Source of the DNA: Elusimicrobiota bacterium | GTDB lineage: Bacteria > Elusimicrobiota > Elusimicrobia > Elusimicrobiales > UBA9959 | NCBI GenBank assembly: GCA_003482905.1 | Contig: DMXM01000003.1 | Coordinates: 5,285 to 69,284 of the forward strand | Direction: 5' to 3' | Length of the DNA: 64,000 bases | Part shown: positions 43,291-64,000 of the stretch, piece after piece | Numbering within the stretch: position 1 is the first letter of the stretch | Layout of the letters: each line of letters opens with the position of its first letter | Notes under the pieces: generated by a model | The model's input: the letters and a program-made list of their open reading frames with translations, nothing else | Told to the model about the DNA's origin: nothing | The model's database searches: none | Position numbers and translations under genes: made by a program

Positions 43291-44052
43291 TTACTGGCCG
43301 AAATCGAAGCCCTTGAACAGGTCTTCTTCGGCCTTATTCGCCCCGGCGGGTGCCGCCTGCCCGGCCTGGGGGAGCGCGGCCGGTTCCGGGCCCCTGGACC
43401 CGGGCAGGGCCTGCATGCGGCCGCGGCCCTCGCCCACCGGCTGCACTATGATCTTGCGCACGCCTTCGGCGAAGGCCAGGAAGCCGGTTTCCATGTTATA
43501 GTAAAGCCTGAAAGGGGATTCCTTCTGCTGCGGCTCATAAGCCTTGCCCAGGTTCATCTTCTGCTGGTCCCAGCCCGGGTTGTACACCAGCTTGCCGCGC
43601 ACGTCCACTTCTTTGTCCACCACTGGCAGGGAGAAATGTATCTTGTAGAGCCCCATCGTGTCGCTTATGCCCGGCGCGAAGGAAAGGTTGATAACGGCGC
43701 CCGCGCTCTCCTCGACTCCGGCGTACTCGTCGGTACCGCCTCCCGCGCTGGTCTTGGATTTGCCGGCCTCGGGCTGTATCTTTATGGTGACCCCTTCTAT
43801 GGGGTTGCCCTGGTAGTCGGTTATTATCCCCTGTATATTGCCGTCCAGGAACATCCCCATTTTTGTGGTGGAGAAGAACAGGAAATCCCTTTTTCCGGTG
43901 ACCTTCTTGGTAAGCGACAGGTCGCCGACCCGCTGGTCGGTGAAGTCCACCACTTTCAGGCTCTTGAACCCGCCGCAGCCGGCGAAAGCCGTCGCCAGCG
44001 TAAAAAGCAGGGCCGATCTTAAACCGATCTTTATTTTTTTCATGTATTTCAC
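43291..44052 (-). CDS. lipoprotein with a carboxypeptidase-regulatory-like beta-sandwich segment
   Basis: Lipobox LATAFAGCGG. IQGIITDYQGNPIEGVTIKI resembles CarboxypepD_reg. It lies 14 nt downstream of motB. Confidence 0.6.
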   Translation of the reverse strand: MKYMKKIKIGLRSALLFTLATAFAGCGGFKSLKVVDFTDQRVGDLSLTKKVTGKRDFLFFSTTKMGMFLDGNIQGIITDYQGNPIEGVTIKIQPEAGKSKTSAGGGTDEYAGVEESAGAVINLSFAPGISDTMGLYKIHFSLPVVDKEVDVRGKLVYNPGWDQQKMNLGKAYEPQQKESPFRLYYNMETGFLAFAEGVRKIIVQPVGEGRGRMQALPGSRGPEPAALPQAGQAAPAGANKAEEDLFKGFDFGQ

Positions 44053-44066
44053 CGTTGTCCGGGCCC

Positions 44067-44864
44067 TTACAGGCCTTCTTCCTCGGGGGCGGCTTCAGCC
44101 GGCTGCTCACCGGCAGGAGCGGTTTCAAAAGCCTGGTCCTGGACCGGGACGCCTTCGGGAGACGCCGGCTCCATAGTAGCGTCGGGGGCCGGGGGAGGCG
44201 GAACGGCGTTGGCGGCCGCGGCCGGCGGGCCGGTTACGGGAGCTTCCGGGTAAGGGTTGTTCTTTATGAAGAAGACCACCCTGCGGTTCTTCTTCCTGTT
44301 CAGTTCGCTGTCGTTGGGCACTATGGGGTGATTCTCGCCGTAGCCTACGGCGGCCAGGTGCTTGGGATTAAAATTGGAGCCCAGCAGGTACTTGACCACG
44401 CTGGTGGCGCGCGCCGAGGAGAGTTCCCAGTTGGAGGCGTACTGCCTGGTGGCTATGGGGACATTGTCGGTATGTCCCTCCACTATGATATCGTGCCTCT
44501 CGGAAAGTTTGCGGAGCACCGGGGCCAGCTTGGCCATCTGCACCTGCATCTGGTCGGTCAGGTCGGCCTTGCCGCTCTCGAAAAAAGCGATCTGGCTCTG
44601 CTCTTCTAGGGTAATGCGCATGCCCTCCTTATCCATGGCCACCTGCCCGGCCATCTTGCCCTCTTTTATCATCTCCTGCACGTCGGCCTGGGCCTTCTGC
44701 ATATCCTTGTTGAGGGCGGCGCTGAGGGCGTAGAGGATGACGAAAAAGCAGACCAGTTCCGTCATCAGGTCGGCGTAATTGACCATCCACGGCGGCGCCG
44801 GGTGGCCTATCTGGGCCACCCTGGAGTCATCCTCCGGGATCATCCCTCTGACTTTTAAAGCCAT
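44067..44864 (-). CDS. motB: MotB-type stator protein (OmpA-like peptidoglycan-binding C-terminus)
   Basis: Plug/TM region PPWMVNYADLMTELVCFFVILYAL with the conserved channel Asp. OmpA-like region VEGHTDNVP...NWELSSARATSV...NRRVVFFI. P/A/E-rich tail. Confidence 0.85.
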   Translation of the reverse strand: MALKVRGMIPEDDSRVAQIGHPAPPWMVNYADLMTELVCFFVILYALSAALNKDMQKAQADVQEMIKEGKMAGQVAMDKEGMRITLEEQSQIAFFESGKADLTDQMQVQMAKLAPVLRKLSERHDIIVEGHTDNVPIATRQYASNWELSSARATSVVKYLLGSNFNPKHLAAVGYGENHPIVPNDSELNRKKNRRVVFFIKNNPYPEAPVTGPPAAAANAVPPPPAPDATMEPASPEGVPVQDQAFETAPAGEQPAEAAPEEEGL

Positions 44865-44867
44865 AGA

Positions 44868-45653
44868 TTAAGCGGCGGCCTCTTTCTTAACGGTCTTGCG
44901 TTTTTCCGGCTCCAGGTAGGCCTTCAGATTGGCTTCCACCACGCTCGGGGTGGCGCCGCTCTGCAGCAGCAGCACGCCGCGGATCACGATCTCTTTGACG
45001 AAGAGCTCTTCCTCGGAGCGGTGCTTCAGCTTGCCGGCCATGGGCAGAAACAGCCAGTAGCCGGACCCCAGGCCGTAGAAAGCCGCGGCCAGCGCCAGGG
45101 CCATGCGGCGCGGCACCTGGGCCACATCGTCGATGGAGGATAGCATCAGGATCATGCCCAGCACGGTGCCGATGATGCCGAAAGCGGGGGCGTAAGTTCC
45201 CAGCGCGTTGAAGATCTCGCGGCCGGCCTTATGGCGCTCGCGGATAAAGTCCAGTTCGGTCTCGAGCATGTTGCGGATAAATTCATGGTCGGCGCCGTCT
45301 ATGACCAGCTGCACGCCGCGCTTGAGGAAATCGTTGTCGATGGCCTTGGCGTCGGTTTCAAGGGCCAGGAAACCCTCTTTCTTGGCCTTCTGGGAGAGCG
45401 CCACAAAAGTGGAGACCAGTTTGGAGGTATCCTCGCCTTTGGAGGTCATGACTTTTTTAAGGACCTTGGTCACGCCTATCACGGAGGAAAGCGGGAAGTT
45501 GACGAGCAGCGCGCAGAAGGTGCCGCCGATGACCACCAGGAAGGCTTCGACATTAAGGAATGGCTTGAAGCCTGCGATGCCTTCGCCCAGGTAAACGGAC
45601 GCGATCACGAAACCAAAAAAGACTATTATGCCGGTGAATGTTGCTATATCCAT
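44868..45653 (-). CDS. motA: MotA/PomA-type stator protein
   Basis: 261 aa, four TM helices with a large cytoplasmic loop. C-terminal YAPAFGIIGTVLGMI...ALAAAFYGLGSGYWLFLPMAGKL, typical of the MotA/TolQ/ExbB channel family. Confidence 0.9.
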   Translation of the reverse strand: MDIATFTGIIVFFGFVIASVYLGEGIAGFKPFLNVEAFLVVIGGTFCALLVNFPLSSVIGVTKVLKKVMTSKGEDTSKLVSTFVALSQKAKKEGFLALETDAKAIDNDFLKRGVQLVIDGADHEFIRNMLETELDFIRERHKAGREIFNALGTYAPAFGIIGTVLGMILMLSSIDDVAQVPRRMALALAAAFYGLGSGYWLFLPMAGKLKHRSEEELFVKEIVIRGVLLLQSGATPSVVEANLKAYLEPEKRKTVKKEAAA

Positions 45654-45677
45654 AATTTAGCTCCAAGGTCTGCGCGG

Positions 45678-45902: not shown

Positions 45903-45909
45903 TTGAGTA

Positions 45910-50542: not shown

Positions 50543-50548
50543 CCGCCC

Positions 50549-52165: not shown

Positions 52166-52290
52166 TGTTTTCGGCAGCCTGACCCCCGCTCACTTAGCGG
52201 GTCTTAGCTTTGCGCCGCCGGTTTTCACCGGCTTTGCTATTATCGTAACAATACGGCGTTACAAACTCGTTACAGATTTACGGCATTAAT

Positions 52291-52318
52291 ATTATAGCAC
52301 ATTAAAATGGTTTGTCAA
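52291..52318 (-). promoter_or_regulatory. near-consensus sigma70 promoter (TTGACA-N16-TATAAT) for the PorV-like gene
   Basis: The minus strand reads ggggcTTGACAaaccattttaatgtgcTATAATattaatg. The -35 is at 52318-52313 and the -10 at 52296-52291. It shares GGGGCTTGACA with the promoter at 22427-22437. Confidence 0.55.
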
Positions 52319-52492: not shown

Positions 52493-52496
52493 TAGC

Positions 52497-55400
52497 CTAG
52501 TGTATAACGCCCACCTTGCGCATTATCACCTTGCTGCCCTTGGGGCTGGCCGCTTTCACCCTCACTATATAGCCGCCCTTGGAAACATAGCCGCCCAGGC
52601 CGTTGCGGCCGTCCCAGATTACGAAATTCGGGCCCAGCTTGCCGCCATCGGCGCCGCTGGTGAACTTGAATTCCCTCACCACATAGCCCAGCAGGTCGTA
52701 AAGGGTTATGGTCACCTCGGCGTTATCGTTAAGCGTATAATTAATGACCGTCCTCCCCTCAACGCCGCCTTTGCGCAGGTCCACCGGGTTAGGGTAGTTG
52801 GACACCTTACTGAGCAGCTCCGCGCCTATGGTGGTGCCGGCCGGGGTGGAAACCGCGGACCATTCGGAATGCAGGCCGGCAAAGTTCCAGCTGCGCACGC
52901 GGTAGGTATAGTACTTGCCGAAAGGCCTGGGGGTCTCGCCGGGGCTCACGGGGTCGCCTATGGTATAGATGTTGTTTATGGCGCCGCCGGTCTTAAAGCC
53001 GGGGATGGCGGCCACCGTATGCCAGACGGGGTTGGTGCCCTCGCGCTCCTGGATCTCGTAGGACATCACGTTGGATTCGCCGTCGGCGGAAGAATCCCAT
53101 TTAAGCGTATAGGCCTGGCCCGAAGACACGCCCTTGGCCACCTGCGGCTCCGGCGCGCCCGGCGTAGTGGGATAGGTGGTGTCTATGCGGTAGATCATTA
53201 TCGGCACGCCGCTCTCGCTCGGGATATAGCGCCCGTCGGCCATAATACCGCGCACGCTCAGCACGTAGCCGCGGTCGGACACGGTCTCGCCCCAGGCCGT
53301 ATGCGGCCCGCGGAAGGAGCCCTGCGCGCCGCGCTCGTTGATCTTAAATGTGGTCCCGTCTATCTTGGTCACCACCATTATCTCGTTGCCCACGTACACC
53401 ACGCCCTCCGCGGCGAAGCCCTCGGCCGAGACCACCGAGAACGAGGAGGTGTTGACGTCGATGCGGCTGGTCAGGTGCGTGAAATGGCCGGGCGAGAGCG
53501 CCACATTGGTGACCTTCCCCGCCAGGGCCGAGCCGGCCGACTGCCAGGTGTTCTTAATGCCGGTCGGGTCGGCAAAGCTGCCTCCGAGCGAGAGTTCGTA
53601 ACCGGTCACCAGCCCCGACGAGGGGTTCCACATGGCGGGAAGCTCCGTGGTCTTGGACGCCCAGACGGAGGGCACGGCCCCGAGCTCCGAAACGGCCAGC
53701 AGCAGCTTAACGTTCTGTACGTTGTCGCCGATGAAGTAAAGCGGCTTGCCCGTGCCGTCGTTTATGATCCTGTCCGGCACGTAGTCGATATTGGACTCGA
53801 AGTCGAGGAGGCGGTCCCCGTCGATATCGAAAGTGGGGATGCCGGAATTATTCAGGCTGATATTGTTGCACTTGCCCGATCCGTAATAATCGAAGTTGTC
53901 CGGGATATTGTCCCCGTTGATGTCTATCAGCGGCTCGTCGGCGCGGCAGCCGGAGGCCGTATAATTGGTCCGCCAGCGGCTGGTGTCCGCCAGCGGCAGA
54001 TTGCCGGCCCCCATCACCACGTTCCCGCTGGAATCCAGCAGCGCGTAGGCGGGATAACCGTTGGAGGCCAGCATCACCGGGCTGTAAACGGGCGTCAGCG
54101 GGATGATCGCCGGCGAGATCAGTATCTGGTTTGAATCCATCGGGTACGTGTCGGCGTAATGCTGGCCGGCGGCCAGCGGCATGCCGCCGACGCCGCGCAG
54201 GTCCGTAAAGGCGCCCAGCGTAAGACCCGCCAGGTGCCCCATGATGTCCGCACCCGAAAGGTCCGCGGCCGAGCTGATATCGCAGGCGAGGTGCAGGATC
54301 GTAGGCGCGGTGGAGATCATCATGTACGGCAGATTGCCGTCGGTAATGGAGATGAAGACACCGTCAACGAACGGGTTGGTGGCCGAGTGCAGGGTGAAGC
54401 CCAGGCGCTTGTCTCCCACCGGGCTGAAGGCCCCATCGCCGTCGTCCTTCCACAGGGCCACTCCGGCCAGGTCTCCGTCGCCGAAACCGACGGTGGTGCT
54501 GCTGATGCTGCCCGACTGCTGAAATTTGATCTGGCCGAGCATTACATAGTCCGCCAGGGTGGCCATGGTGAAGGTCATCATGGGCACGTTGCGCGTGTTC
54601 TTCTCGGCCGATTTCGGGGCGATATTGACGCTTTTCACCGTAACGTTCACGGCTTTCACCGGGACAAGGCTCGAACTGAACGGATAGATATCCACGTACG
54701 TACCCCTCGGCAGCGCCTTGCTTATGCCGACAAAGACGTTTGGCGAGATGTCGTGCGGGGCATTTACAACTATCCAGGACTTGTCGCGTATCATCAGGCC
54801 GACCTTATTGGCCTTTATGGCCATTTCGCCGAGGTCGTACACCGCGAAATACGTCTGCGGCAGCGGGCTAAGGGTCTGGCTCTGCGACAGCTGGATATGC
54901 GTCTGCGTGTTCAGCGGGTTCTCCTGGTCGAAGACATCCACCTTGCGCACCGCTACGCGGGCGGCATGGGTGACCACCGGCGTATTGAAGTCCCCCAGCT
55001 TCTCCCCCCTCGAAAACACCCTCAGGTACGGCTTGCCGGTGCCGGCGTCCACGCCGGAGCCGGAGTAGGAGGCCAGCTCGGCTTCACCGATATATATGCG
55101 GCCCTCGGCCGGGAAACCGGTCGTGGAGGCCAGCACCAGGTTGAACGGCAGCGTATCCGTGGAGGTGAACGGTATGGCCAGTGTCGACCTGGCCTCGGAA
55201 ATATTCGTATCGTTCACGTCCAGCATGTCGTTCTGGTTGGAGTCCTGGTAGATCCTTATGAACTTGACGTCGCCGTTCTTGCCGAACGGGGCGGCCGGGT
55301 CGTTGGAAGCGCCGGTGCGCTGCACCTTTATGGCGCTCCAGCGAGCGTTGCCCGCTTCGGTAATAAGGTTAAACCGGATCATCGGCGCGTTGATCTGGGC

Positions 55401-58400
55401 CTGGTTGACGCCGCCGGCCAGCACCAGGTCGCCGGCCACGTCGTTGCCGCCCATCACCACGTTGGACGGGATCTCCCGCACCAGCATGGGCATAGTGTTG
55501 ATAGGCGAGGTGGTAAGCGTGATGACGTTGGGAATGCCTATGGTGAAGTTCGCGGCCGAGGAGATGGAGAGGGCGGCCGTGCTGCCTATGATGGCGAACT
55601 GTGACATATCGTAGCTGATAAAGGCACAGGCCGTGTTGGTAGTTACGATTATAGGGGATTTCAGCGCTATATTGACGGTGCTGGACGAATAAGACTCGTT
55701 GCCGTAGCTGGCCAGGTACGGGTACGCGCCGGCGGAGTTGCTGGCGGTATCCACGGAGTCCAGGATACAGTTGTCGTTGGAGTCTTTCCAGACCTTTATC
55801 AGGTCTATATCCGAGTCGTTGGATGTCCCGCGGCGGCTCAGCCTTATAGCCTCCACGCGGGCCGAGGTCTTGTCCGTTACCAGGCGCATGGCCAGTACGC
55901 CCACGTTCTTATCGTTCTGCGTCACGCTCACCGGCGAGATATCCTCGGGTGTCATGGTGACATTGTTCATCGTCGGAAGCAGCGTGTTCATCTGGCTGAC
56001 CACCGGCGACAGGAACTGGGCGACATGGCCGGAATTTTCCGGGCCGAACAGGAAATTGGTCTCGAACGGCACCTCTATCCCCAAGACGTCGTTCTGGGGG
56101 CTCAGCAGAACATTGGAGAACCTGGACGTCTTGTCTATATCCACGGAAACGAAGATGACCGTGGGGGTTGACCTTATGACCACGTAATCCTGGTTATTCA
56201 GCTCCGGGTCCTTAACAGCTATGGTGGCCTTGCCCACCGGGTCGTTGACGCCGAAGCGGCCGGTGCCGATGAGGGTGTCCGAGGTGTTCAGGCCTGTGGC
56301 GGCGTCGCGGTCGAACACGCCGTTGCCGTTGTCTTTCCAGACCTTTATCACCTCCGCGTCTTCGTCGTAGCCGGCCAGGCCGGCCGGCTGCTTGCGGGAC
56401 AGCCTGACCCCCTGCCAGCGCACGCCGTAGCCCGACGTGGTCAGGGCCATCCGCATTACCGGGTAATTGAGCCAGCCCTGGTATACCATGCCGCCGATAA
56501 CGCTGTTGTTGGCGTGGTTGACCACCGGGGTATTGAAGGCCCCGCGGGTGACCGCGGTCAGGGCCCCGGCGGCGGTGCCGGCGTAACTTATTATTTCGTT
56601 GTCCACCACCGCGTAGCCCGAAGCGGGAATGCCCGCCGTGGAGGTCACCAGCCAGGCGGCGTCCACGGGACCCGGGCTGGCGACGTCCTGCGCCAGGCGC
56701 AGGGAAGGCGCGGAGCCGGCATTGTCCGGCGAGAAGATAGAAGCGGCCAGCACGGTCACGGTACTGGGGCTGGAGACGATCTCGCGGACCTTGGAAACAT
56801 AGGTCAGATTGGAATTAGCCGCGGAGAAGTAATTCGGCAGCGAGAGGGAGTTCTTGGCCGGATCGTCCGTAGCGGGGCTGTTCTGCGGCAGCGAATCCGC
56901 CTTAAGATAGGCGCCCAGGTAGCGCGGGTTGCCCAGCGGATCGTTAGGCATGGCCGAGGCGCGTATATCGTAGGTCAGGAAATAACGCGGGGACATGGAA
57001 TTATTGAGCGCCTCCAGGTCCGTGACCACGCGCCGCTCGGAGGCAAAATCCACCCGCGCGGTCAGGGGGCCGTAGATGGTATTGCCGAATGTGCCGGACC
57101 CGACCATAACGTCGGAGGCGCCGAGGAAGCCGTTATTGTCCGCGTCGTGCCAGACCTTGACCGCGGAGACGTCGTTTATGGCCGTGCCGTCCTGCATGAC
57201 CGTGCCGGTGGCGTAAACCATCATCCAGCGCCACATGGCGTCTGCCACGCTGGTCTTGATCGTGAAAACCATGACCGGCTGATTCTGCGCCTGCTGCTGC
57301 AGCGTCGGCCCAAGTACGGTATCGGTGGCCTTCACTACGACCTCGTCGGCGTACTCGCGCACCTTTCCCACCAGCGAGAGGGTCTTGCCGGGGGCGGTGA
57401 CGCCCACATTAACCGTGCTCATATGCTTCGGCGAGGTTATCATGAAGTAATCCGTGCTGCGCAGGGCCACGCCGATATATGAGAAGTTGGAGACATTGGC
57501 CAGCGGGTCGATGTCGTAGGCCACGAAGTAGTCCTTGGGCACGTTGTAAATAACCTGCCCGTCCAGCGCGCCGCCCGTTCCTATCATGGGCAGGACGGCC
57601 TGGCCGGAAACTACCGTGCCTGTGGACCAGTCCGCTATCGCGGTGGCCTCGGCGCCGCGGGTAAGCCCGCCGAAAGCGTTGGAAAGGACGTCCACGCTGG
57701 AATAATATATGACCTCTTTCAGGGACGGGTCGGCCTGGCCGTCGTTCATGATAAGACGGCCCGGCGCCATGGGGAAGGGGCTGTCGGCCGGGAAGAATTT
57801 TTGGATGTCGTAAACACGAAGCACCGTGTCTGTGGCCAGCAGCGGGGCCTTCAGCGTATCGTACGGGAAGGTGCGGACACTGGGGGCTATCAGCAGCACC
57901 TCGGTATCCTTCACCGTGCCGGTGGTCTCCAGCAGGCCGTCAAGGGTGGAGTCGTACCAGATGCTGATCTTCTTGACGTCCGTAACCTTGTTCCAGGCCG
58001 GGGTATTACCGTTCTCCGCCCCGGTCACCCAGCGGTCCAGCTTTAGGCCGCTCCAGATGGCCGACCCCTGAGAGCCGTTTATCTGCATCGTCAGCCTGAC
58101 TACGGCCTTATCCTTGTCGTTCTGGGTAACAAAAGAGGGCTTGGCGAAGTCGTTGGGCTGGGACTTGTTGACGTCCGCCAGGTAAACGATATCGGCCGTG
58201 GCGTAAAGCGGTATCGTGGAGGAAACTACCGGCTGGAAAGCCCCTACCCAGCCGTCGATCAGGTTGACGCCGGAGTTCTCAAGGCGGGCGCCGTGGGTCA
58301 TATTGGGCACGGAGTCCGGCCCGAACTCGTAGACTACGTAATAGGTGCGGGTGCTGATCGAAATGGCGCCGTCCAGGCCGGGGTTTATCAGCGGCAGGAC

Positions 58401-61400
58401 GAACGTGTCCGGGTCCTGGATATCGTAGGACGGCGGGTTCACCGGGTCCGTGACCTCCTTGTCTATACTGGGGGCGAAGATGCCGTCGCCCAGCGTCGGG
58501 TCGCCGCCGGAGGAGTCCAGGAACAGGCGCACGCTCTTCAAGTCGGCGCCGGAGCCCGTGCCCGTCTTTATGATCTTGAACGCCTTCAGCACGCCGGTAA
58601 AATTCTCGGTCCAGGCCTTTATCTCCAGGAAGCCGACGCGGCCCTGGCCCTGCTCCACGTAGGTGTACTGGCCCAGGGTCAGCGTGGTGGTGCCGACGGA
58701 GGGCTGCCACCAGGCCGCGATATCGTTGCCCTTTATCATTATGGTGGCCGGCTGGTTGCGCACCGGGCTGGTGGCGGTGGCGATGGGGAAGTTGTTATAG
58801 GCCACGCCCACAAAAGTGGAGTCCAGCACCACGTACGACGGGTTCTCCATCACCAGGGAGAAGCTGCGCGGCGTGGCGGCGACGGTGGACATGCGCACCG
58901 TAAAGAAGAAGTTGCGCGGCGTATTGGAGACCAGGGCGGCGGTGGATACCTTGGCTTGCAGGTCGTTAAAGTGCCAGGCCATCAGGCCGGGGTCGTAGGT
59001 GCCGCTGGACATAAAGATATCAACGGGCGCGCCGCCCAGGGAAGTTTCGCCGTCAAAAGCGCCGGTCTGGCCGAAAGTCGGGTTATCGGCGTACATGCCC
59101 ACTTCCACGATATCGGCCCAGTTCAGGGTGCCGGAGCTCTTGACCTGCACCGATTTCAGGTAGGCCGTCGGCGTCCCCACCGGCTCGGTCTGCATGGTCA
59201 GGCGCAGCATAGGCACGGGGGCCGGCACTACGGCAATGACCCCGTCGCCCTGGTAGATGGCGTTCTTATTTATGCCGTTGTTGGTCTTGGCGACCGGCAG
59301 GGGGTCTTCCGGAGACATATCCAGGGGCGTGATCCTCAACCCCGACAGGACGACGTCGGGGCTGGAAGCCGCCGGCATGCCGCGGGCGCCGTCGCCGGTG
59401 TAGCCGTAAATGCCCGGGATGTGATAGTCGGTAACGCTGACCTTCAAAGTCTCTACAATGGTATCCTGCAGCAGCAGCTGGCGCTCGCCGTGGTCGGCGG
59501 GCACAAAAACATAGTCGGTGGTGTTGGCCAGCCAGTCGCGCAGATCGGCGGTCCCCTTGGAATTGGTGGCCATTTTTATCTTGCTGACATAGTAATTGCC
59601 GTTCACGGGGTCGCCGGCCGCCACGTTGCCGAACTGGTCGCGGGCGCGCAGTGTGACGTTGCCGGGGGTCTGTACCCGCAGCGGGCTGGCCAGGCTGTAA
59701 CCGTGGTGCAGCGTGAAGTAGGCCGCCGCGCCGGGGGTGATATATGTTTCCTGGTTTATCTGCGGCAGGACGACGCCGTCCGCCGGTATGGAGGCGTCGG
59801 CGGTAAGGGCGGCGGTACCGACGATAGTGTCCCAGATATATACATTCGCGTAGCTCTGACCGGGGAAGATGGGGACGTCCAGCGGGTTGGTCTTGAGCAG
59901 TTTCCAGTTGGGATTGGAGGCCAGCACGGCCTCGGACGGGTCTATACCGCCGTACATGCTGTTGCGCACGGCGGTGAAGCGCACGGTGGCCGCGGAGGAG
60001 GTGCTGGTAGCGTTCCCGTAGCGGTCTTTCAGCACCACGCTCACCACGGTGGGCGTGGTGAGGTTCAGCGCGAAGTCGGCGTATTGCAGCGTGGTTCCAG
60101 CCACCAGGCGCCGGGACGGCGTGTGGAACACCACATGGTCCGGGGGTGCCGGCACCACGGTATAGGAGGAGATGGCCGGCAGCCAGCCCTTGGAATTTAC
60201 CGTATTTATTGTGAGCTGGTGCGTCGGGTTGGACAACAGCGTGTCTATCAGGTAGAAACTGGTGGCGGACTCGCCCAGCGCCAGCTTGGCGTAACCGGGC
60301 TGGGCCGTAAAGCTGGAAACCGACGGGGCGGAGAACCGCACGTCGCCGGTGGAGCCGGACTCCAGCTTGAACAGAACGCCGGCGCCTATCGCGTCTTCCT
60401 GGCCGGAGGCGATGGGGGTCGGGTTGCCGTAGCGGTCCTCTATGGCCATGGCGAACATCTGCGAGGTGGTCCCCGCCATCACGGTTTGGCCGGCGTTAAG
60501 GCTGACGTTCACGCGGTAAGTGAAGTCCGGCAGCACGTGCACGGGCTGGGTGGAGGCGGACCAGGCCGGCCGGTCCGGAGCCGCTATCTTTATCACCGGC
60601 CGCAGCGGTATGGTGGAGCCGTAAACGGCGGAGGCCGTGGTGTCCAGGTAGTAGAACGTGGCAAAGTAGGCATCCAGCGGTATATCCAGGAAAGTGGCCG
60701 TGGAGGCGAAGACAGGCGGGAAAGCGGCGGCCAGGGAACTGGAAGCCGAGAAAGAGAAAGCGTCGTTGACCTGCGAGGGCTGGCGGGTGAACGTGGAAAG
60801 GACGACCCGCACCGTAGCCGTGGCCAGGGACGGGTTGTCGAACATATCGCGCAATTCCGCCTCGAAATTCCGGACCAGGCCGAAGCTGTCGGTTATCCTG
60901 CCGGCCACCAGGGAGACCGGCTGGTTGCCGAAAGAAACCTTGGCTATATCCACCGGGTTCAGGCGCAGCGGGTGTATGGCCGGCTGCATGGAGCCGCTGC
61001 GGGCCTCAATCTGCCAGTAGCCGGGCCTGCCGCCCTCCCCGGTGTTCAGCGCCGGCGAGAGGCCGGAATAGGACGACGTCCTGTCATGGTAACGGAAGGA
61101 GATCTGCGTCTGGTTAGGCGGAATGCTGACGGTCTGGACGAACTGCGTGTTACCCTGGTCGCGGTAGCCGTAGTCGCCTAAAGTGCCGAAAGTACCCAGC
61201 GTACGGCCCAAAGCCGTGTGAATGGTTCCCTGGGCCGACGGCAGGCCGAGGAAAACGTCGGTCTGGCCTTCCCTGGTCAGGTTGTCGAAGTCGTCGCGGC
61301 GCTCCACCGTGAAGAACGCGCCGGCGCCGGCCACTTCCTGTATGCCGGCCGCCGCCGCCGCCTGGCTGGAAACGAAGAGCAGCTTGGAGGGCACGCCGCC

Positions 61401-64000
61401 TTTGGTCGTCATCTTGCCGGTGACGTTCTGCCTGGCGGACAGGTAAGCGGCATAAGCCGGGGAAGTGTTGACCGGGGCGCTGGTGGTGCCTATCCAGACG
61501 CGCGCCCAGTCGCCGGCCTTGCTGGACACCTTGTAGACCATCTGCGTGGAAACACCCACCTGGCCTGTGGCGTCCGTATAGACTATGGTCGAAGTCCCCA
61601 TGTCGAACCAGGCGGAAGCTATATTGGCCTGCAGCGCCCCGGTGGAACCGTACACCTCCGGGATCTCCACGTAGGCCGGCACCCCCGCGGACGATATATT
61701 ATTGTCGAAGGCGTCGGACAACTGCGCCGTCAGGGCCTGGCGGCCCGGCAGAACCGTGGAGCCAGCGCCCACTTCCGTATCCGCGTTGGGCATAACGCGG
61801 TAAATATTAGGGGGGCCGGGCTGTACATAAACTTCCGCCGGCGGCGCGACATTGATGCCGGGAAGGAGAGTGTCGTAAGCGCCCAGGGTATTGACCCCGG
61901 CCTTCCTGAAAGTGAACCAGCCGGGCAGGTCTTTCACGCCCAGGTCCGAACGGTAGAAAGGCACGGTCCAGGCGGACGGCGTCGGGTCCTGGTTGGGGTT
62001 TACCTGGTCCACCAGCACGAAGGCCGCCGTGCCCAGGTAAACATTATTGCCGGTGGAGCAGTTGTTCTCGAAAGTATCCTTCGCCAGCAGCGCGGCCGAG
62101 AACGGCAAACCGGCCACCACCGTGGTGGAGGGCAGCACGTAGACCATATGCGTGACCGGGCCGGGATTAACGGTAAGGGTGGATACCCCGGCGGCGTAGT
62201 AGGCCGCGGAAGCCGCCGTGGTGGCGGCCACCACCGTGTAGGTGCTGAAAGAGGTGCGGGCGTCTATGGCGAATACGGCGCTGCCGTTGGACAGGGTCTG
62301 GACTCCGGGCGGCGTCGTTTTAAAATCGCCCGGCATGGAAACCACTACGGCGGGCATCACGGCCACGGGGTTAGTGTCCTGGGCCGCGCCGGCCAGCTCG
62401 GTGGCCTTGTTATAGAAATCGTCGGTCAGGTAAACGCTGGCGAACAGCGGGCCGGCGCCTATGGTATGTACCGCCGGCGGGCCGGTGCGGCCGGGCCAGG
62501 CGATGAGCGGGTCGCGGCAGGGGCCGATATTGCATTTACCTTCGGCCAGCCCCTGGCCCGGCAGCACCACTTCCAGGCGCGTGGCTGTCGAGGAGAACAC
62601 CTTAAGATAGGCCCTGGCGGCCGCATCGTTGCCCAGGCAGACGCCGCCGGCGCCGCCGAAACACATATTATTGTCGGCGGCCGCCACCGGGTAGACCTTT
62701 ATGGAGGCGTCGCTCCGCCTGGTCACCAGGTTCAACTGCGTCTGGAGGGTGCCGTAATTCAGGGCGGTGCTGGAACCGTCGTTGTCGTAGATATCGGAAG
62801 TGATCAGGTAGACGGTGGGGCCCACCGACAGGCCGGTATAGCGGTTCATGTACTGGTCCACCAGGTTTATGGTCACGCTGAAAGGCGTGCCGGCGGTAGC
62901 CGTGGAGATCAGCGAGGCCTTGCCGCCGGCCGGGTACGCGCCCGAGCCCGGCACGGCCGTCTCACCGGGGACCAGCAGCTGCAGGCCCACCGGGTCGGCC
63001 GGCCGCACTGTAAATGTCGAGGACTGCGGGTCGGACGAAAGGCCGGAAGAGCCGTAGTCGGCGGCGGTCAGGTAATGCGTGGCGGCCTTACGCATGCTCA
63101 CATAAATAAAGTCGGTAACTCCGGACGCTATGTTTATGGCGGCCGTGCTTACGGCCGGGGCGTAAGCGTCCGACGGCGTGTTCACGCGCACATCGGCCGG
63201 ACGGCCCGTTACCTTGTTGTAGAAGCTGTCCACTACACCCACCTTAACACCGAAGCTGGCCCCGGCTTTCTGTTCGGTGGCCACCCCCGCCTTGCCGGTG
63301 GCGGAACCCTGGTCGAAATCCTCTCCGGGGAGCACCAGCAGCAGGCGGCTGGGAACGCCGGGTGCCACGCTGACCACCGTGGCCGTGTCCACGTTAAGCG
63401 TCGGGCCCCAGGGCGGCACCGCGTTGACCAGTTCGGCCCGCACATACGTAGCGCCGGCCCTTTTCGGCGTCACGGTGAACGTGGCGGAGCCTACCACCAC
63501 CTGGGTGGAGGGGCTGACCACCGAGAAGGGGTCGTCGCAGACCAGGCGTATCTCCTGGCTGGTCCCCGGCGTCAGGTTCCAGAAAGCGTCGGCTATATCC
63601 ACGGTTACGGTGAAGGGGAAGCCCGCCTGCTGGCCTGCCACCACTCCGGCGCGGCCGTTGCCGGTAGAGCCAGGCACACGGGTTTCATTGGGTACCATGG
63701 CCCTGAGCTTGGTCGGGTTATTAGGGCTAAGCGCGAAAACGCCGCTTGACGTGGCCCCCAGGTTGGTCCCGGTACCGCTCAGATCCGTGGCCGTAACGGT
63801 CCTGAAACCGGCGCTGCGCAGGGTGATATTGCCGATGGTGGCGCTGCCGTCGGTCATATTGAAGGAGCCCAGATTGGCGGCGAAGGCGTCGTCCGAAGTG
63901 GCGACGATATTGGCCTTGTTTATGCCGTAAACCCGGTTATAGCGGGTGTCGGCGGCGTAGACATAAGCGTTGAAGGGGACGCCGGCGGTCTGGGTGGAGA
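52497..64000 (-). CDS. giant cell-surface repeat protein, more than 3,830 aa; N-terminus outside the window
   Basis: The track ORF is 52497..63857 (3786 aa). My translation of 63858-64000 in the same frame has no stop (...AYVYAADTRYNRVYGINKANIVATSDDAFAANLGSFN-MTDG), so the gene continues upstream.
- At least 11 Big_1-like units with a D-x-[FY]-x-N motif (DAFWNL, DSFYNKV, DQYMNRY, DRYGNPT, DQFGNVA...).
- Seven modules with [VI][KR][VI]W.D....G..D loops.
- Calcium-binding-like DINGDNIPDN...DIDGDRLLD (about 53760-53935).
- FN3 domain (about 52850-53175).
- C-terminal YPNPVDL...TITLYDLLGYVV...VIWDGRNGLGGYVSKGGYIVRV, a T9SS/FlgD-Ig-like CTD (52500-52815). Confidence 0.85.
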   Translation of the reverse strand, partial: STQTAGVPFNAYVYAADTRYNRVYGINKANIVATSDDAFAANLGSFNMTDGSATIGNITLRSAGFRTVTATDLSGTGTNLGATSSGVFALSPNNPTKLRAMVPNETRVPGSTGNGRAGVVAGQQAGFPFTVTVDIADAFWNLTPGTSQEIRLVCDDPFSVVSPSTQVVVGSATFTVTPKRAGATYVRAELVNAVPPWGPTLNVDTATVVSVAPGVPSRLLLVLPGEDFDQGSATGKAGVATEQKAGASFGVKVGVVDSFYNKVTGRPADVRVNTPSDAYAPAVSTAAINIASGVTDFIYVSMRKAATHYLTAADYGSSGLSSDPQSSTFTVRPADPVGLQLLVPGETAVPGSGAYPAGGKASLISTATAGTPFSVTINLVDQYMNRYTGLSVGPTVYLITSDIYDNDGSSTALNYGTLQTQLNLVTRRSDASIKVYPVAAADNNMCFGGAGGVCLGNDAAARAYLKVFSSTATRLEVVLPGQGLAEGKCNIGPCRDPLIAWPGRTGPPAVHTIGAGPLFASVYLTDDFYNKATELAGAAQDTNPVAVMPAVVVSMPGDFKTTPPGVQTLSNGSAVFAIDARTSFSTYTVVAATTAASAAYYAAGVSTLTVNPGPVTHMVYVLPSTTVVAGLPFSAALLAKDTFENNCSTGNNVYLGTAAFVLVDQVNPNQDPTPSAWTVPFYRSDLGVKDLPGWFTFRKAGVNTLGAYDTLLPGINVAPPAEVYVQPGPPNIYRVMPNADTEVGAGSTVLPGRQALTAQLSDAFDNNISSAGVPAYVEIPEVYGSTGALQANIASAWFDMGTSTIVYTDATGQVGVSTQMVYKVSSKAGDWARVWIGTTSAPVNTSPAYAAYLSARQNVTGKMTTKGGVPSKLLFVSSQAAAAAGIQEVAGAGAFFTVERRDDFDNLTREGQTDVFLGLPSAQGTIHTALGRTLGTFGTLGDYGYRDQGNTQFVQTVSIPPNQTQISFRYHDRTSSYSGLSPALNTGEGGRPGYWQIEARSGSMQPAIHPLRLNPVDIAKVSFGNQPVSLVAGRITDSFGLVRNFEAELRDMFDNPSLATATVRVVLSTFTRQPSQVNDAFSFSASSSLAAAFPPVFASTATFLDIPLDAYFATFYYLDTTASAVYGSTIPLRPVIKIAAPDRPAWSASTQPVHVLPDFTYRVNVSLNAGQTVMAGTTSQMFAMAIEDRYGNPTPIASGQEDAIGAGVLFKLESGSTGDVRFSAPSVSSFTAQPGYAKLALGESATSFYLIDTLLSNPTHQLTINTVNSKGWLPAISSYTVVPAPPDHVVFHTPSRRLVAGTTLQYADFALNLTTPTVVSVVLKDRYGNATSTSSAATVRFTAVRNSMYGGIDPSEAVLASNPNWKLLKTNPLDVPIFPGQSYANVYIWDTIVGTAALTADASIPADGVVLPQINQETYITPGAAAYFTLHHGYSLASPLRVQTPGNVTLRARDQFGNVAAGDPVNGNYYVSKIKMATNSKGTADLRDWLANTTDYVFVPADHGERQLLLQDTIVETLKVSVTDYHIPGIYGYTGDGARGMPAASSPDVVLSGLRITPLDMSPEDPLPVAKTNNGINKNAIYQGDGVIAVVPAPVPMLRLTMQTEPVGTPTAYLKSVQVKSSGTLNWADIVEVGMYADNPTFGQTGAFDGETSLGGAPVDIFMSSGTYDPGLMAWHFNDLQAKVSTAALVSNTPRNFFFTVRMSTVAATPRSFSLVMENPSYVVLDSTFVGVAYNNFPIATATSPVRNQPATIMIKGNDIAAWWQPSVGTTTLTLGQYTYVEQGQGRVGFLEIKAWTENFTGVLKAFKIIKTGTGSGADLKSVRLFLDSSGGDPTLGDGIFAPSIDKEVTDPVNPPSYDIQDPDTFVLPLINPGLDGAISISTRTYYVVYEFGPDSVPNMTHGARLENSGVNLIDGWVGAFQPVVSSTIPLYATADIVYLADVNKSQPNDFAKPSFVTQNDKDKAVVRLTMQINGSQGSAIWSGLKLDRWVTGAENGNTPAWNKVTDVKKISIWYDSTLDGLLETTGTVKDTEVLLIAPSVRTFPYDTLKAPLLATDTVLRVYDIQKFFPADSPFPMAPGRLIMNDGQADPSLKEVIYYSSVDVLSNAFGGLTRGAEATAIADWSTGTVVSGQAVLPMIGTGGALDGQVIYNVPKDYFVAYDIDPLANVSNFSYIGVALRSTDYFMITSPKHMSTVNVGVTAPGKTLSLVGKVREYADEVVVKATDTVLGPTLQQQAQNQPVMVFTIKTSVADAMWRWMMVYATGTVMQDGTAINDVSAVKVWHDADNNGFLGASDVMVGSGTFGNTIYGPLTARVDFASERRVVTDLEALNNSMSPRYFLTYDIRASAMPNDPLGNPRYLGAYLKADSLPQNSPATDDPAKNSLSLPNYFSAANSNLTYVSKVREIVSSPSTVTVLAASIFSPDNAGSAPSLRLAQDVASPGPVDAAWLVTSTAGIPASGYAVVDNEIISYAGTAAGALTAVTRGAFNTPVVNHANNSVIGGMVYQGWLNYPVMRMALTTSGYGVRWQGVRLSRKQPAGLAGYDEDAEVIKVWKDNGNGVFDRDAATGLNTSDTLIGTGRFGVNDPVGKATIAVKDPELNNQDYVVIRSTPTVIFVSVDIDKTSRFSNVLLSPQNDVLGIEVPFETNFLFGPENSGHVAQFLSPVVSQMNTLLPTMNNVTMTPEDISPVSVTQNDKNVGVLAMRLVTDKTSARVEAIRLSRRGTSNDSDIDLIKVWKDSNDNCILDSVDTASNSAGAYPYLASYGNESYSSSTVNIALKSPIIVTTNTACAFISYDMSQFAIIGSTAALSISSAANFTIGIPNVITLTTSPINTMPMLVREIPSNVVMGGNDVAGDLVLAGGVNQAQINAPMIRFNLITEAGNARWSAIKVQRTGASNDPAAPFGKNGDVKFIRIYQDSNQNDMLDVNDTNISEARSTLAIPFTSTDTLPFNLVLASTTGFPAEGRIYIGEAELASYSGSGVDAGTGKPYLRVFSRGEKLGDFNTPVVTHAARVAVRKVDVFDQENPLNTQTHIQLSQSQTLSPLPQTYFAVYDLGEMAIKANKVGLMIRDKSWIVVNAPHDISPNVFVGISKALPRGTYVDIYPFSSSLVPVKAVNVTVKSVNIAPKSAEKNTRNVPMMTFTMATLADYVMLGQIKFQQSGSISSTTVGFGDGDLAGVALWKDDGDGAFSPVGDKRLGFTLHSATNPFVDGVFISITDGNLPYMMISTAPTILHLACDISSAADLSGADIMGHLAGLTLGAFTDLRGVGGMPLAAGQHYADTYPMDSNQILISPAIIPLTPVYSPVMLASNGYPAYALLDSSGNVVMGAGNLPLADTSRWRTNYTASGCRADEPLIDINGDNIPDNFDYYGSGKCNNISLNNSGIPTFDIDGDRLLDFESNIDYVPDRIINDGTGKPLYFIGDNVQNVKLLLAVSELGAVPSVWASKTTELPAMWNPSSGLVTGYELSLGGSFADPTGIKNTWQSAGSALAGKVTNVALSPGHFTHLTSRIDVNTSSFSVVSAEGFAAEGVVYVGNEIMVVTKIDGTTFKINERGAQGSFRGPHTAWGETVSDRGYVLSVRGIMADGRYIPSESGVPIMIYRIDTTYPTTPGAPEPQVAKGVSSGQAYTLKWDSSADGESNVMSYEIQEREGTNPVWHTVAAIPGFKTGGAINNIYTIGDPVSPGETPRPFGKYYTYRVRSWNFAGLHSEWSAVSTPAGTTIGAELLSKVSNYPNPVDLRKGGVEGRTVINYTLNDNAEVTITLYDLLGYVVREFKFTSGADGGKLGPNFVIWDGRNGLGGYVSKGGYIVRVKAASPKGSKVIMRKVGVIH

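Follow-up and report, generated by a model that had tools for sequence, protein, structure and literature searches.

A conserved Elusimicrobiota operon joining flagellar stator genes to a predicted FliF–FliG fusion and a PorV-family barrel: a candidate flagellum-independent motor

Most free-living Elusimicrobiota carry motAB, flbD, and fliG without structural flagellar genes, "a few" members of the phylum have full flagella, and the role of the orphan genes has been termed enigmatic (Uzun et al., bioRxiv 10.1101/2022.07.08.499144). The same work explicitly left open how the nonflagellated free-living Elusimicrobiota, magnetosome-bearing ones included, move. What might a flagellar motor be driving in such cells? 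We addressed this question with a 64,000-nucleotide stretch of an Elusimicrobiota contig (here called the window), for which an initial annotation had proposed a nonflagellar, pmf-driven machine of a kind not previously described. The novelty holds in part: the orphan genes were already in print, though not in this operon architecture. The genes and the phylum treated by Uzun et al. are identical to those of our case, but that study is a KEGG-level gene count that labels FlbD, mistakenly, a transcriptional activator; it describes neither the operon nor the fusion protein, the PorV-TPR protein, the C-terminal domain (CTD) protein, the lipoprotein peptide, or the riboswitch reported below. In a literature search, we found no described FliG-containing nonflagellar machine and no natural FliF–FliG fusion, and searches on Elusimicrobia returned nothing relevant about either T9SS or c-di-GMP riboswitches.

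Organization, control, and conservation of the operon

The ORF list confirmed eight co-directional genes on the minus strand, all at the positions given in the initial annotation (Table 1). From the giant gene through the lipoprotein gene, the intergenic gaps are 331, 211, 81, 112, 24, 3, and 14 nt. The earlier family calls (FlbD, MotA, MotB, FliG_M/FliG_C, PorV/PorQ plus TPR, and a type-A CTD) all have profile support, which was significant for the FliG-like and PorV-like calls. Since a σ70-type promoter, matching 12 of 12 consensus positions, and a c-di-GMP-I riboswitch precede the PorV-TPR gene, the core is a seven-gene operon encoding PorV-TPR, the FliF/FliG fusion, a coiled-coil protein, FlbD, MotA, MotB, and a lipoprotein; promoter, riboswitch, and terminator bracket these seven genes. 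The terminator that had been annotated after the lipoprotein gene was read as a hairpin followed by T6. With the promoter and riboswitch in between, the giant gene forms a transcription unit of its own, upstream of the seven core genes. A 193-aa ORF starting with TTG and overlapping flbD was dismissed as a high-GC artifact, as were many antisense ORFs. In the remaining 43 kb of the window, we found housekeeping and defense genes only and no flagellar, chemotaxis, or T9SS families, in agreement with the earlier observation that nothing else flagellar is present in the 64 kb.

Table 1. Positions of genes, protein domains, and regulatory elements at the locus (nucleotides of the window; residues of the respective protein)
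Feature	Position (nt)	Residues (aa)	Strand	Remarks
Intrinsic terminator at operon end	43235..43257		-	GAGGGCC-TTA-GGCCCTC, then TTTTTT, read in the sequence
Lipoprotein gene	43291-44052		-	No family match
Lipoprotein C-terminus	43294-43329			EEDLFKGFDFGQ-COOH
motB	44067-44864		-	MotB_plug, 45.1 bits; OmpA, 67.1 bits
motA	44868-45653		-	MotA_ExbB, 98 bits
flbD	45678-45902		-	74 aa; PF06289, 84.5 bits (cutoff, 24.7)
764-aa protein gene	46015-48309		-	Without family match
Predicted FliF–FliG fusion gene	48391-50337		-	FliG_C, FliG_M, plus TPR
Fusion, cytoplasmic TPR	48400-48660	560-646	-	
Fusion, FliG_C with torque helix	48787-49104	412-517	-	88.7 bits
Fusion, FliG_M	49168-49428	304-390	-	40.7 bits
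Fusion, TM helix	49618-49704	212-240	-	Acidic linker after it
Fusion, FliF RBM3/β-collar-like periplasmic domain	49699-50241	33-213	-	
Fusion, signal peptide		1-20		
PorV-TPR gene	50549-52165		-	NF033709, 110.7 bits (cutoff, 90), plus TPR
PorV-TPR, PorV/PorQ-family β-barrel	51200-52021	49-322	-	
PorV-TPR, C-terminal TPR domain		~337-535		TPR_19, TPR_2, and TPR_14 match
c-di-GMP-I riboswitch aptamer (GEMM-I), in 5' leader	52170..52248		-	RF01051, 60.4 bits
σ70-type promoter	52291..52318		-	TTGACA, 16-nt spacer with TG, TATAAT
Giant protein gene	52497..64000, continues past the window		-	Frame open to the window end
T9SS type-A-like CTD, FlgD-Ig-like	52500..52823		-	YPNPVD at start, RKVGVIH at end

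The aptamer matched the full Rfam covariance model (positions 1 to 87; gathering score, 35), and the ATG of the PorV-TPR gene begins 4 nt past it. RF01051 or its variant RF03167 was present at the matching position in all 18 other loci that retain the 5' region of the PorV-TPR gene (19/19 with the window's own locus included), and an in-frame AUG lay 3 to 7 nt past the aptamer in each of 14 loci inspected. The core operon is under predicted c-di-GMP riboswitch control, a feature that, like the FliF homology and the lipoprotein C-terminal peptide described below, the initial annotation had missed.

The fusion protein is encoded by 134 species genomes. The operon is present in at least 80 Elusimicrobiota species and probably in 134; the 80 loci that we kept come from Elusimicrobiota-named or unclassified metagenome-assembled genomes (MAGs). 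Recurrence of the neighborhood in relatives had been suggested as a check, and it proved to be strongly conserved: the order of the core genes is kept across the 80 species-level genomes examined, which places the arrangement far beyond chance. In 60/63 loci the PorV-TPR gene precedes the fusion gene, in 50/51 the coiled-coil, FlbD, and MotAB genes stand beside it, and in 42/47 the lipoprotein gene is present. Carriers include GCA_001799615.1 (GWA2_61_42), whose fusion is 88% identical, and the MAG JBFXJL01 with its 528-kb contig. Two loci (L046 and L048) are missing the PorV-TPR and lipoprotein genes, and in another (L038) che genes stand where flbD-motAB would be. The ORFs are intact in every locus examined, 80 species together, and in the distant tier MotA retains 73% identity compared to 43% for the neighboring mnmA product. 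When a divergent, AT-rich member (L045) served as the query, no cultured Elusimicrobium or Endomicrobium appeared among the best 120 matches.

Predicted rotor and stator proteins

Sequence profiles and structural models mark the rotor protein, which public pipelines label "flagellar motor switch protein FliG," as a probable natural FliF–FliG fusion. It consists, in order, of a signal peptide, a FliF RBM3/β-collar-like domain, one TM helix, FliG_M, FliG_C, and a TPR domain. FliG_M and FliG_C both scored above their profile cutoffs, Thermotoga maritima FliG_MC (1lkv) aligned with the fusion at an E value of 6e-31, and in Foldseek the FliG_C model gave TM-scores of 0.86 to 0.96 (0.92 to the MotAB-bound FliG_C of 8ucs). 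The full-length FliG model TIGR00207 gave 110 bits compared to a cutoff of 226.7 and aligned at profile positions 112 to 337 only, indicating that the fusion is without FliG_N. The N-terminal half instead has the secreted FliF-like domain and the TM helix where FliG_N, which binds the FliF C-terminus, would be.

Foldseek with the full-length model of the fusion returned FliG and TPR matches only, and the N domain was modeled separately. The best 18 PDB matches to this domain model were all FliF MS-ring RBM3/collar structures (probability, 0.92 to 1.0), with TM-scores of only 0.32 to 0.45 and ~10% identity, and the model has a 60-residue low-confidence loop. Ten of 19 divergent members of the fusion family matched PF08345 (YscJ_FliF_C; best E value, 3.2e-6), and PF08345 scored 24.8 bits in the divergent member P0204 (cutoff, 23.8); the N domain of the window's own fusion had no significant Pfam match. 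PF01514, the model for FliF RBM1/RBM2, was not found in the fusion. The periplasmic part is only ~180 residues long behind a cleavable signal peptide, and TM1, RBM1, and RBM2, the parts of FliF that hold the export gate, are missing. Engineered or recombinant FliF–FliG fusions exist (e.g., Vibrio, PDB 8z4d/8z4g), whereas this one is natural and conserved.

Alignment of the fusion sequences revealed selective retention of FliG interface residues. The Gly-Gly linker between FliG_M and FliG_C is present in 78/78 sequences, and the FliG_M–GG–FliG_C organization used in ring polymerization is intact. The FliM-docking EHPQ of FliG has become EDPW (in general [ED][ED]PW, its P and W found in 78/78 sequences). 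Of the five canonical torque-helix charges, three are lost: R281 is replaced by G (77/78), D289 by I (also S), and R297 by T (also S). The position of D288 is E483, with E in all 78 sequences, so that this charge is kept, and K264 is K in 45 of the 78. The most conserved segment of the whole fusion is the TM helix, which suggests intramembrane contacts.

The stator proteins are divergent yet recognizably of flagellar type. MotA aligned over its full length to the MotP/MotA/PomA models and to Clostridium sporogenes MotA (E value, 1.5e-50) and Vibrio PomA (1.6e-48), and it has the cytoplasmic torque-generating loop of the flagellar type; its NCBIfam equivalog score (240.7, with a cutoff of 394) marks it as a divergent family member. 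The positive charge at the position of R90 is kept as K91 in 60/60 sequences, and the charge of E98 is kept in part (E in 26/60, Q in 34/60). Covariation between MotA E99 and FliG K460 tracks the two clades and is inseparable from phylogeny. MotB has a TM helix, a plug, and an OmpA-like peptidoglycan-binding domain, matches PDB MotB and PomB chains, and has the proton-carrying Asp (D32) in 59/59 sequences. FlbD (SwrD) is a small flagellar protein associated with the stator; the copy here retains all six of the residues reported as most conserved in SwrD, N15, I19, E23, P26, D27, and T28 (PMC13232269); a PDB sequence search with FlbD found nothing.

Two other classes of motor were ruled out. 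A Tol/Ton/Exb motor was eliminated by the full-length alignment of MotA to MotA/PomA/MotP together with the MotB plug. Zorya and other defense systems were eliminated as well: no ZorA match was seen, a PADLOC scan of MotA, the 764-aa protein, and the fusion gave no match, and MotB showed only a generic MotB/ZorB similarity in PADLOC (~70 bits to ZorB, below the 154 bits of the MotB/MotD models).

Outer-membrane module, coiled-coil protein, and giant protein

The PorV-TPR protein joins a PorV/PorQ-family barrel to a TPR domain that would lie in the periplasm. It scored below the equivalog cutoffs for PorV (35.9; cutoff, 250), PorQ (48.6; cutoff, 220), and PorV2 (78; cutoff, 325) and weakly matched the Flavobacterium johnsoniae PorV chain 6h3i_F. 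In the lipoprotein, a lipobox (AFAGC) is followed by a β-rich body and a Pro/Ala tail that varies; profile and PDB sequence searches gave no family or PDB match. It ends in a peptide that recurs as [ED][ED]DLFKGF[DG]FG[QP]-stop in 43/43 loci, once per locus. The 764-aa protein is cytoplasmic, without a signal peptide or TM segment, and its gene always separates the fusion gene from flbD. The N-terminus is Pro-rich, with a conserved PPLPPG, and the long Glu/Lys/Ala/Gln-rich body is by composition probably a coiled coil; a C-terminal RLKWA[IL]KG is conserved in the close tier.

Gene calls on an identical public contig (L001) give the giant protein 10,213 aa, so the window holds only its C-terminal 3,833 aa. 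We found no Pfam or PDB domains in it apart from the tail, and a self-BLAST gave no internal repeats. As an isolated 130-aa tail, the CTD scored 24.4 bits against TIGR04183 (cutoff, 23); scanned inside the full-length protein, it scored 16.8 bits, below the threshold, and the call for this sequence is thus marginal. TIGR04183 matched 14/14 orthologous giant-protein tails (best E value, 1.8e-6), the CTD also matched PorU and PorZ tails, and its conservation is far above that of the giant-protein body. There is one CTD tail per locus, that of the giant protein. An insensitive search of a 5.8-billion-protein index with the CTD returned only 12 short fragments and no wider cargo set. The initial annotation had placed a giant CTD adhesin in the cluster; an ortholog does lie immediately upstream of the PorV-TPR gene in 34/60 loci, but mainly in one clade, and the gene is transcribed separately.

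Comparison with known machines and possible functions

The operon resembles the flagellar motor core in its MotA, MotB, and FlbD homologs, in FliG_M/FliG_C with the GG linker and torque-helix fold, and in the order of FliF-like periplasmic domain, TM helix, and FliG, which is that of FliF TM2 followed by FliG; the torque mechanism is presumably shared too. It differs in that neither the operon nor the window nor the flanks examined encode FliF RBM1/RBM2, FliG_N, FliM/FliN, or any of the export apparatus, rod, hook, and filament, and in the altered docking motif, the lost torque-helix charges, the C-terminal TPR, the PorV-like barrel, lipoprotein, and coiled-coil partners, and the riboswitch. 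To our knowledge, FliG-based torque generation is known from flagella only. A parallel with the T9SS/gliding machinery of Bacteroidota had also been drawn; it stands as a parallel of logic and goes no further. Each system has an ion-driven motor of the 5:2 type in the inner membrane, a PorV/PorQ-family barrel in the outer membrane, and a giant type-A-like CTD protein, and the placement of a cargo gene beside a dedicated barrel gene recalls the SprB–SprF pairing. In contrast, the motor here is of the MotAB/FliG type rather than GldLM, the barrel carries a TPR arm, the window and flanks showed no GldK/N, SprA, or PorU/Z, and Elusimicrobiota lie outside the FCB group. The Agl–Glt gliding complex of Myxococcus combines a MotAB/TolQR-family motor with partners that span the envelope, with proteins of the outer membrane, and with AglZ, a long coiled-coil protein of the cytoplasm. 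It likewise uses no flagellum, and the 764-aa protein could be the counterpart of AglZ, but the Glt proteins are not homologous to the parts described here and the Agl motor is TolQR-like, without FliG.

We favor, as rather probable on the sequence evidence, the reading that the operon encodes a pmf-driven rotor–stator machine that derives from the flagellar motor, works independently of a flagellum, and is coupled to proteins of the outer membrane and the cell surface. The nonflagellar, pmf-driven character proposed in the initial annotation is well supported by the missing FliG_N, the fused FliF-like domain and TM helix, the EDPW motif, and the preprint of Uzun et al. According to this model, MotA5B2 stators would be held on peptidoglycan by MotB and probably helped by FlbD/SwrD, protons would pass via the conserved MotB Asp, and the stators would push against FliG_C in a rotor made of one polypeptide. 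The fusion would assemble as a minimal MS-ring/FliG ring, with its FliF RBM3/β-collar-like domain in the periplasm and FliG_M and FliG_C in the cytoplasm, and would turn without a rod, an export gate, or a FliM/FliN switch. Motion would pass to an outer-membrane module consisting of the PorV-family barrel, with its periplasmic TPR arm, and the lipoprotein, which would probably dock through its invariant C-terminal peptide; in many lineages this module would add the giant surface protein, held via its T9SS-type CTD. The output may be the moving or deploying of that protein, as in gliding-type motility or adhesin handling, and the c-di-GMP level would set expression of the operon. Several observations weigh against this model: it has no axial element and no known means by which a ring turning in the inner membrane could drive a barrel in the outer membrane, the CTD protein would have to cross the outer membrane without a T9SS translocon, the giant gene is outside the operon and adjacent in little more than half of the loci, and the FliF similarity is modest, with three torque-helix charges gone and MotA E98 mostly Q.

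The same parts could be read as an energizer that replaces GldLM/PorLM and serves the export, attachment, or release of CTD cargo through the PorV-like barrel in a T9SS-like manner, with no motility device. A PorV-family barrel and a type-A-like CTD are the outer-membrane and cargo hallmarks of T9SS, the cargo gene often adjoins the barrel gene, and strong conservation of the CTD relative to the cargo body is expected of a sorting signal. However, no SprA/PorU/GldK-N homolog was seen in the window or the ±10-kb flanks, there is a single CTD protein per locus with no wider cargo set from the insensitive CTD search, the core operon occurs without an adjacent cargo gene in many genomes, and no role in secretion is known for a rotating FliG ring; we consider this reading unlikely. 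A nonrotary envelope tether or sensor, either a pmf-dependent force transducer working like Tol-Pal or Ton or a mechanosensor that stabilizes the outer-membrane barrel or relays signals from it, without a ring or continuous rotation, is more doubtful still. Tol, Ton, Agl, and Zor are driven by 5:2 motors without a FliG ring (listed in PMC12204202), and the loss of most canonical torque-helix charges, the exceptional conservation of the TM helix, and the TPR arms and terminal peptides are compatible with a static scaffold. The N domain, though, specifically resembles the ring-forming FliF RBM3/collar, MotA with its cytoplasmic loop is flagellar and unlike TolQ/ExbB, and the organization for ring polymerization is preserved in the fusion.

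Could the operon simply be the motor/switch part of an ordinary flagellum, a suboperon of a complete regulon elsewhere in the genome? The core proteins are all flagellar homologs, the fusion is labeled FliG by pipelines, and a few Elusimicrobiota do have complete flagellar sets. Nevertheless, FliG_N is replaced by a covalent FliF-like domain and TM helix, the FliM-binding EHPQR is altered, a TPR domain follows FliG_C, and the operon holds a PorV-like barrel gene and a c-di-GMP riboswitch. No flagellar gene was found in the 64-kb window, among the called genes around the identical contig and two further loci (L001-L003), or among the ORFs of nine relatives' loci, and most carriers lack structural flagellar genes (10.1101/2022.07.08.499144). 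We infer that this particular genome has no flagellum, and we regard the suboperon explanation as very improbable. Least credible to us is the idea that an ancestral flagellar locus is decaying here and no longer has a function. The lineage is probably of flagellated ancestry, many flagellar parts are missing, and a 2026 preprint makes the case for a complex flagellum in the last bacterial common ancestor (10.64898/2026.06.11.731707). The conservation data already contradict this explanation: ORFs are intact across 80 species, catalytic residues are invariant, MotA is more conserved than its housekeeping neighbors, and a dedicated riboswitch is conserved.

If the rotor–stator reading is correct, the flagellar motor would be reusable as a stand-alone engine, without the rod, hook, filament, export gate, or FliM/FliN. 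In the injectisome, it was the flagellar export apparatus that was retained and the motor that was lost. We tentatively suggest that the operon may represent a third flagellum-derived nanomachine lineage, specific to Elusimicrobiota, in which the motor was kept, the export and axial parts were lost, and rotation in the inner membrane drives a PorV-like/TPR module and a giant CTD-anchored protein, giving a hitherto undescribed form of c-di-GMP-regulated surface motility or adhesin actuation. The fusion would then be a natural minimal rotor of ~650 aa from one gene, combining a FliF ring domain, FliG_MC, and a TPR domain, and would lend itself to structural and single-molecule studies and to asking how MS-ring, FliG, and stator coevolved. 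The riboswitch gives experiments a point of entry, and specific, testable interaction hypotheses follow from the lipoprotein peptide and from both TPR arms. For the phylum, such a machine would be a candidate explanation for the movement of nonflagellated free-living Elusimicrobiota, including those that bear magnetosomes.

The gene cluster and its conservation

Eight consecutive minus-strand ORFs occupy positions 43291-64000, as the initial annotation had read from the sequence, and profile searches upheld the family assignments it had made. The terminator that it placed 3' of the lipoprotein gene is evident on reading the sequence. It had also described nothing else in the 64 kb as flagellar; the other 43 kb of the window indeed contains no flagellar, chemotaxis, or T9SS families and consists of housekeeping genes, two GGDEF proteins, and a small defence island. 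Since the 331 nt that separate the giant gene from the PorV-TPR gene contain a promoter and a riboswitch, the predicted functional unit is the promoter, the riboswitch, seven genes, and the terminator, and the giant gene, which encodes a CTD-bearing surface protein, is a neighbouring unit outside it.

Features of the window, with profile-search scores
Feature	Position (strand)	Length	Evidence or remark
Two tandem GGDEF diguanylate cyclase genes	17839-20426		~32 kb from the riboswitch-controlled operon
Low-GC dip	20516-28414		GC 0.54-0.58
AbiEii/AbiEi toxin-antitoxin pair	20516-22380		inside the low-GC dip
MksE gene	26024-26641		Mks/Wadjet-like operon
tmRNA gene	28063-28414		135 bits; adjoins the Mks/Wadjet-like operon
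Two opposite-strand ORFs	33099-35231	709 aa each	overlap almost perfectly
Protein just past ddl	38275-39201 (-)	308 aa	no Pfam family
Protein just past ddl	39313-41007 (+)	564 aa	no Pfam family
Lipoprotein	(-)	253 aa	lipobox present; no family match
MotB	(-)		MotB_plug 45 bits, OmpA 67 bits
MotA	(-)		MotA_ExbB 98 bits; aligns end to end with MotP/MotA/PomA models
FlbD	(-)		PF06289 84.5 bits (cutoff 24.7)
Coiled-coil protein	(-)	764 aa	no family match, signal peptide, or TM helix
Rotor protein	48391-50337 (-)	648 aa	FliG_M 40.7 bits, FliG_C 88.7 bits, TPRs
Rotor TM helix	49618-49704		most conserved rotor segment
PorV-TPR	(-)	538 aa	NCBIfam PorV/PorQ family model 110.7 bits (cutoff 90), aa 49-322, then TPRs
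c-di-GMP-I riboswitch aptamer	52170-52248		full length; 60.4 bits (gathering 35)
Promoter	52318-52291		σ70 consensus
Giant protein	52497 to window end (-)		open at window edge

Contigs from groundwater metagenomes encode proteins identical to those of the window, as does an NCBI MAG with the name Elusimicrobia bacterium; the closest named relatives are GWA2_61_42 and GWA2_62_23 (GTDB order Elusimicrobiales, family and genus UBA9959). When one genome per GTDB species was scanned, relatives of the 648-aa rotor protein were found in 134 species, of which 80 loci were kept; all come from MAGs named Elusimicrobia or Elusimicrobiota, except for a few whose title is just “MAG: bacterium.” These relatives formed a close tier and a distant tier, with 56-88% and 42-49% identity, respectively, to the window's protein. 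The initial annotation had asked whether the neighbourhood recurs in relatives, and among loci with enough flank it does: PorV-TPR immediately precedes the fusion gene, which encodes the rotor protein, in 60/63 loci, the coiled-coil, FlbD, MotA, and MotB genes lie downstream in 50/51, and the lipoprotein gene is next in order in 42/47. Distant-tier MotA is 73% identical to that of the window, versus 43% and 47% for the flanking housekeeping proteins mnmA and ddl; thus, the module is more strongly constrained than its neighbours. The 564-aa gene holds its place after ddl on the near-identical contigs L001 and L003, and a gene of similar size is found there in L042.

Three loci had a nonstandard layout. 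L046 and L048 have neither PorV-TPR nor its riboswitch, and their lipoprotein gene is also missing; upstream of the fusion gene they encode an S41 peptidase lipoprotein, and downstream of motB a CheY-like receiver (119 aa) and a protein (751 aa) without a known family. At L038 (Elusimicrobia GWA2_56_46, 15408-21887), cheW, cheB, and cheA follow the coiled-coil gene in place of flbD-motAB, together with genes for a receiver-PAS protein and an actin-like (FtsA/MreB-type) protein, so that a chemosensory operon stands beside the rotor genes. The module therefore tolerates rearrangement, and these variants hint at chemosensory input.

Elsewhere in the window, the low-GC stretch looks like a defence island integrated beside ssrA and holds, besides the toxin-antitoxin pair, a four-gene condensin-type operon (281 aa, 905 aa, MksE, and 408 aa). 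Only the minus-strand member of the overlapping 709-aa pair had family matches, which identify it as a class A PBP carrying both a transglycosylase and a transpeptidase domain; the other, with none, was rejected as a high-GC antisense artefact, as were many further long antisense ORFs.

The rotor protein and its stator

The rotor protein was modelled with AlphaFold2 from a 90-sequence alignment. In order, the model has a cleavable signal peptide, a periplasmic domain (aa 35-200), a single TM helix (aa 212-247), an acidic linker, FliG_M/FliG_C helices, and three TPRs. The FliG part matched T. maritima FliG_MC (E 6e-31), and crystal structures of FliG_C superposed on the modelled domain at TM-scores of 0.86-0.96 (0.92 for the MotAB-bound fragment, 8ucs_H). 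The periplasmic domain was predicted as a helix, a long β-hairpin, a 60-residue low-confidence loop, a second long hairpin, a helix, and a strand. A separate model of this N-domain, compared with the PDB, gave as its 18 best matches only RBM3/β-collar structures of the FliF MS-ring (TM-score 0.32-0.45, probability 0.92-1.0, E 1.6e-5 to 1e-2); SpoIIIAG, PrgK, and EscJ ranked lower. Among 1.84 billion representative proteins, just 85 matched its profile. Ten of these, the longest divergent ones, were scanned: seven shared the N-domain, FliG_M, FliG_C, TPR architecture, one was a shorter match with FliG_M only, and two were unrelated proteins. PF08345 (YscJ_FliF_C, “flagellar M-ring protein C-terminal”) matched 10 of 19 divergent N-terminal fragments (best E 3.2e-6), one of them above the curated cutoff. 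Because the structural and sequence evidence agree, we read the rotor protein as a natural fusion of the FliF C-terminal half (RBM3/collar plus TM2) to a FliG lacking FliG_N, the domain that normally binds the FliF C terminus.

The loop, which AlphaFold leaves disordered, carries the motif [FY][ILV]LP[GW][VIL]PxP[KR][ST] in every member, the most distant included; the FliF β-collar is likewise ordered only once the ring has assembled. Mean column conservation of the TM helix was 0.87, versus 0.70 for FliG_C; a simple anchor would not usually reach this level, which suggests specific intramembrane contacts.

On the stator side, the proton-carrying Asp of MotB was kept in 59/59 sequences. The MotA R90 equivalent is Lys (60/60), and the E98 equivalent is Glu in 26 sequences and Gln in 34. 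In FliG, the Gly-Gly linker and E483, which corresponds to D288 and follows a Lys or Arg, are retained in all 78 sequences; Gly replaces R281 in 77 of the 78, and neither D289 nor R297 has a charged counterpart. In E. coli numbering, the R90-D288 pair is kept, and the E98-R281 pair has decayed, on both partners, a pattern consistent with, though short of proof of, a co-adapted MotA-FliG interface. Where FliG normally docks FliM through EHPQR, the rotor instead has [KR][ED][ED]PW, in which P and W never vary. FlbD keeps all six residues most conserved in SwrD, which forms hexameric rings and on which full torque in B. subtilis depends; SwrD-MotA binding is predicted but unverified (PMC13232269).

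Outer-membrane components and riboswitch control

The barrel is a member of the PorV/PorQ family and an equivalog of none of PorV, PorQ, and “PorV2.” PorV barrels have a periplasmic C-terminal end, so the TPR arm that follows the barrel here is expected to lie on that side of the outer membrane, giving the system one periplasmic and one cytoplasmic TPR module. The lipoprotein has a variable Pro/Ala tail that ends in [ED][ED]DLFKGF[DG]FG[QP]-COOH in 43/43 loci of both tiers, once per locus, and the coiled-coil protein has conserved termini (N-terminal PPLPPG and C-terminal RLKWA[IL]KG). Together, the TPR modules and terminal peptides suggest TPR-peptide docking. We also observed small secreted N-domain paralogues (185-244 aa, no TM helix) with an EEDLFKGFDFG-type lipoprotein peptide inside the loop (L085, 9133-11184; L087, 10001-10618). 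Two map to operon-bearing assemblies (those of L068 and L054), and one is flanked by an FlgO/CsgG-like lipoprotein gene and a 152-aa ORF.

The giant ORF runs past the window edge, leaving only the C-terminal 3,833 residues inside; the gene call on a 100%-identical public contig is 10,213 aa long. As for the T9SS-type CTD initially assigned to it, the tail (YPNPVD ... RKVGVIH) fell below the TIGR04183 threshold when the whole protein was scanned, whereas the isolated 130-aa tail scored 24.4 bits (cutoff 23). Matches to TIGR04183 and to the tails of PorU and PorZ were also obtained for each of 14 orthologous tails. The giant gene lies upstream of PorV-TPR in 34/60 loci, comprising nearly the whole close tier and two distant-tier loci.

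An aptamer (RF01051 or the variant RF03167) lies directly upstream of PorV-TPR in all 18 other scanned loci retaining the region and is absent from both scanned loci without PorV-TPR. In 14/14 leaders inspected, an in-frame AUG follows 3-7 nt past the aptamer, which supports the long PorV-TPR start (538 aa) and suggests translational control. Such riboswitches typically control motility, pilus, adhesin, and biofilm genes, and this one is consistent with a surface-behaviour machine. Leaders from much of the distant tier (L058, L059, L061, L065, L074, and L083) scored best with RF03167 (c-di-GMP-I-GGC), above RF01051; to our knowledge, the ligand specificity of RF03167 is unsettled, and the signal sensed may differ between clades. 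The two GGDEF genes are possible suppliers of the ligand.

Proposed mechanism and alternatives

From homology and conserved residues, we infer that peptidoglycan-anchored MotA5B2 units, possibly with an FlbD ring, would use the pmf to turn MotA against FliG_C. Beyond this step, we hypothesize that FliG_C sits in a ring, made by the FliF-like periplasmic domain and by FliG_M/FliG_C stacking, that turns in the inner membrane; that a periplasmic collar with the conserved loop, the lipoprotein peptide, and the barrel's TPR arm would link it to the outer membrane; and that the barrel would grip the CTD of the giant protein, where present, which would be moved laterally, rotated, or deployed.

The main rival is an energiser of secretion or anchoring, analogous to the T9SS. 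The rotor's similarity to FliF ring domains makes a static Tol/Ton-like transducer less probable, and a dead relic is unlikely. An ordinary flagellar sub-operon is also unlikely: a rotor without FliG_N, with an altered FliM site, a covalent FliF-like domain, and extra TPRs, misfits a standard MS/C-ring; the operon partners are nonflagellar; and no flagellar gene was found in the 64-kb window, among called genes around L001-L003, or among ORFs of nine relatives' loci. Moreover, a survey of motility genes across Elusimicrobiota genomes reports a complete flagellar set in “only a few” and notes that most free-living members carry motAB, flbD, and fliG but lack structural flagellar genes (Uzun et al., 10.1101/2022.07.08.499144). 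That study is the only prior mention we found in the literature, and it does not include the operon, fusion, barrel, CTD protein, or riboswitch; Elusimicrobia go unmentioned in a 2025 survey of how MotAB evolved. We conclude that the system is probably a flagellar-type rotor-stator motor in a new, nonflagellar context, with a considerable possibility that the machine is of a categorically new kind.
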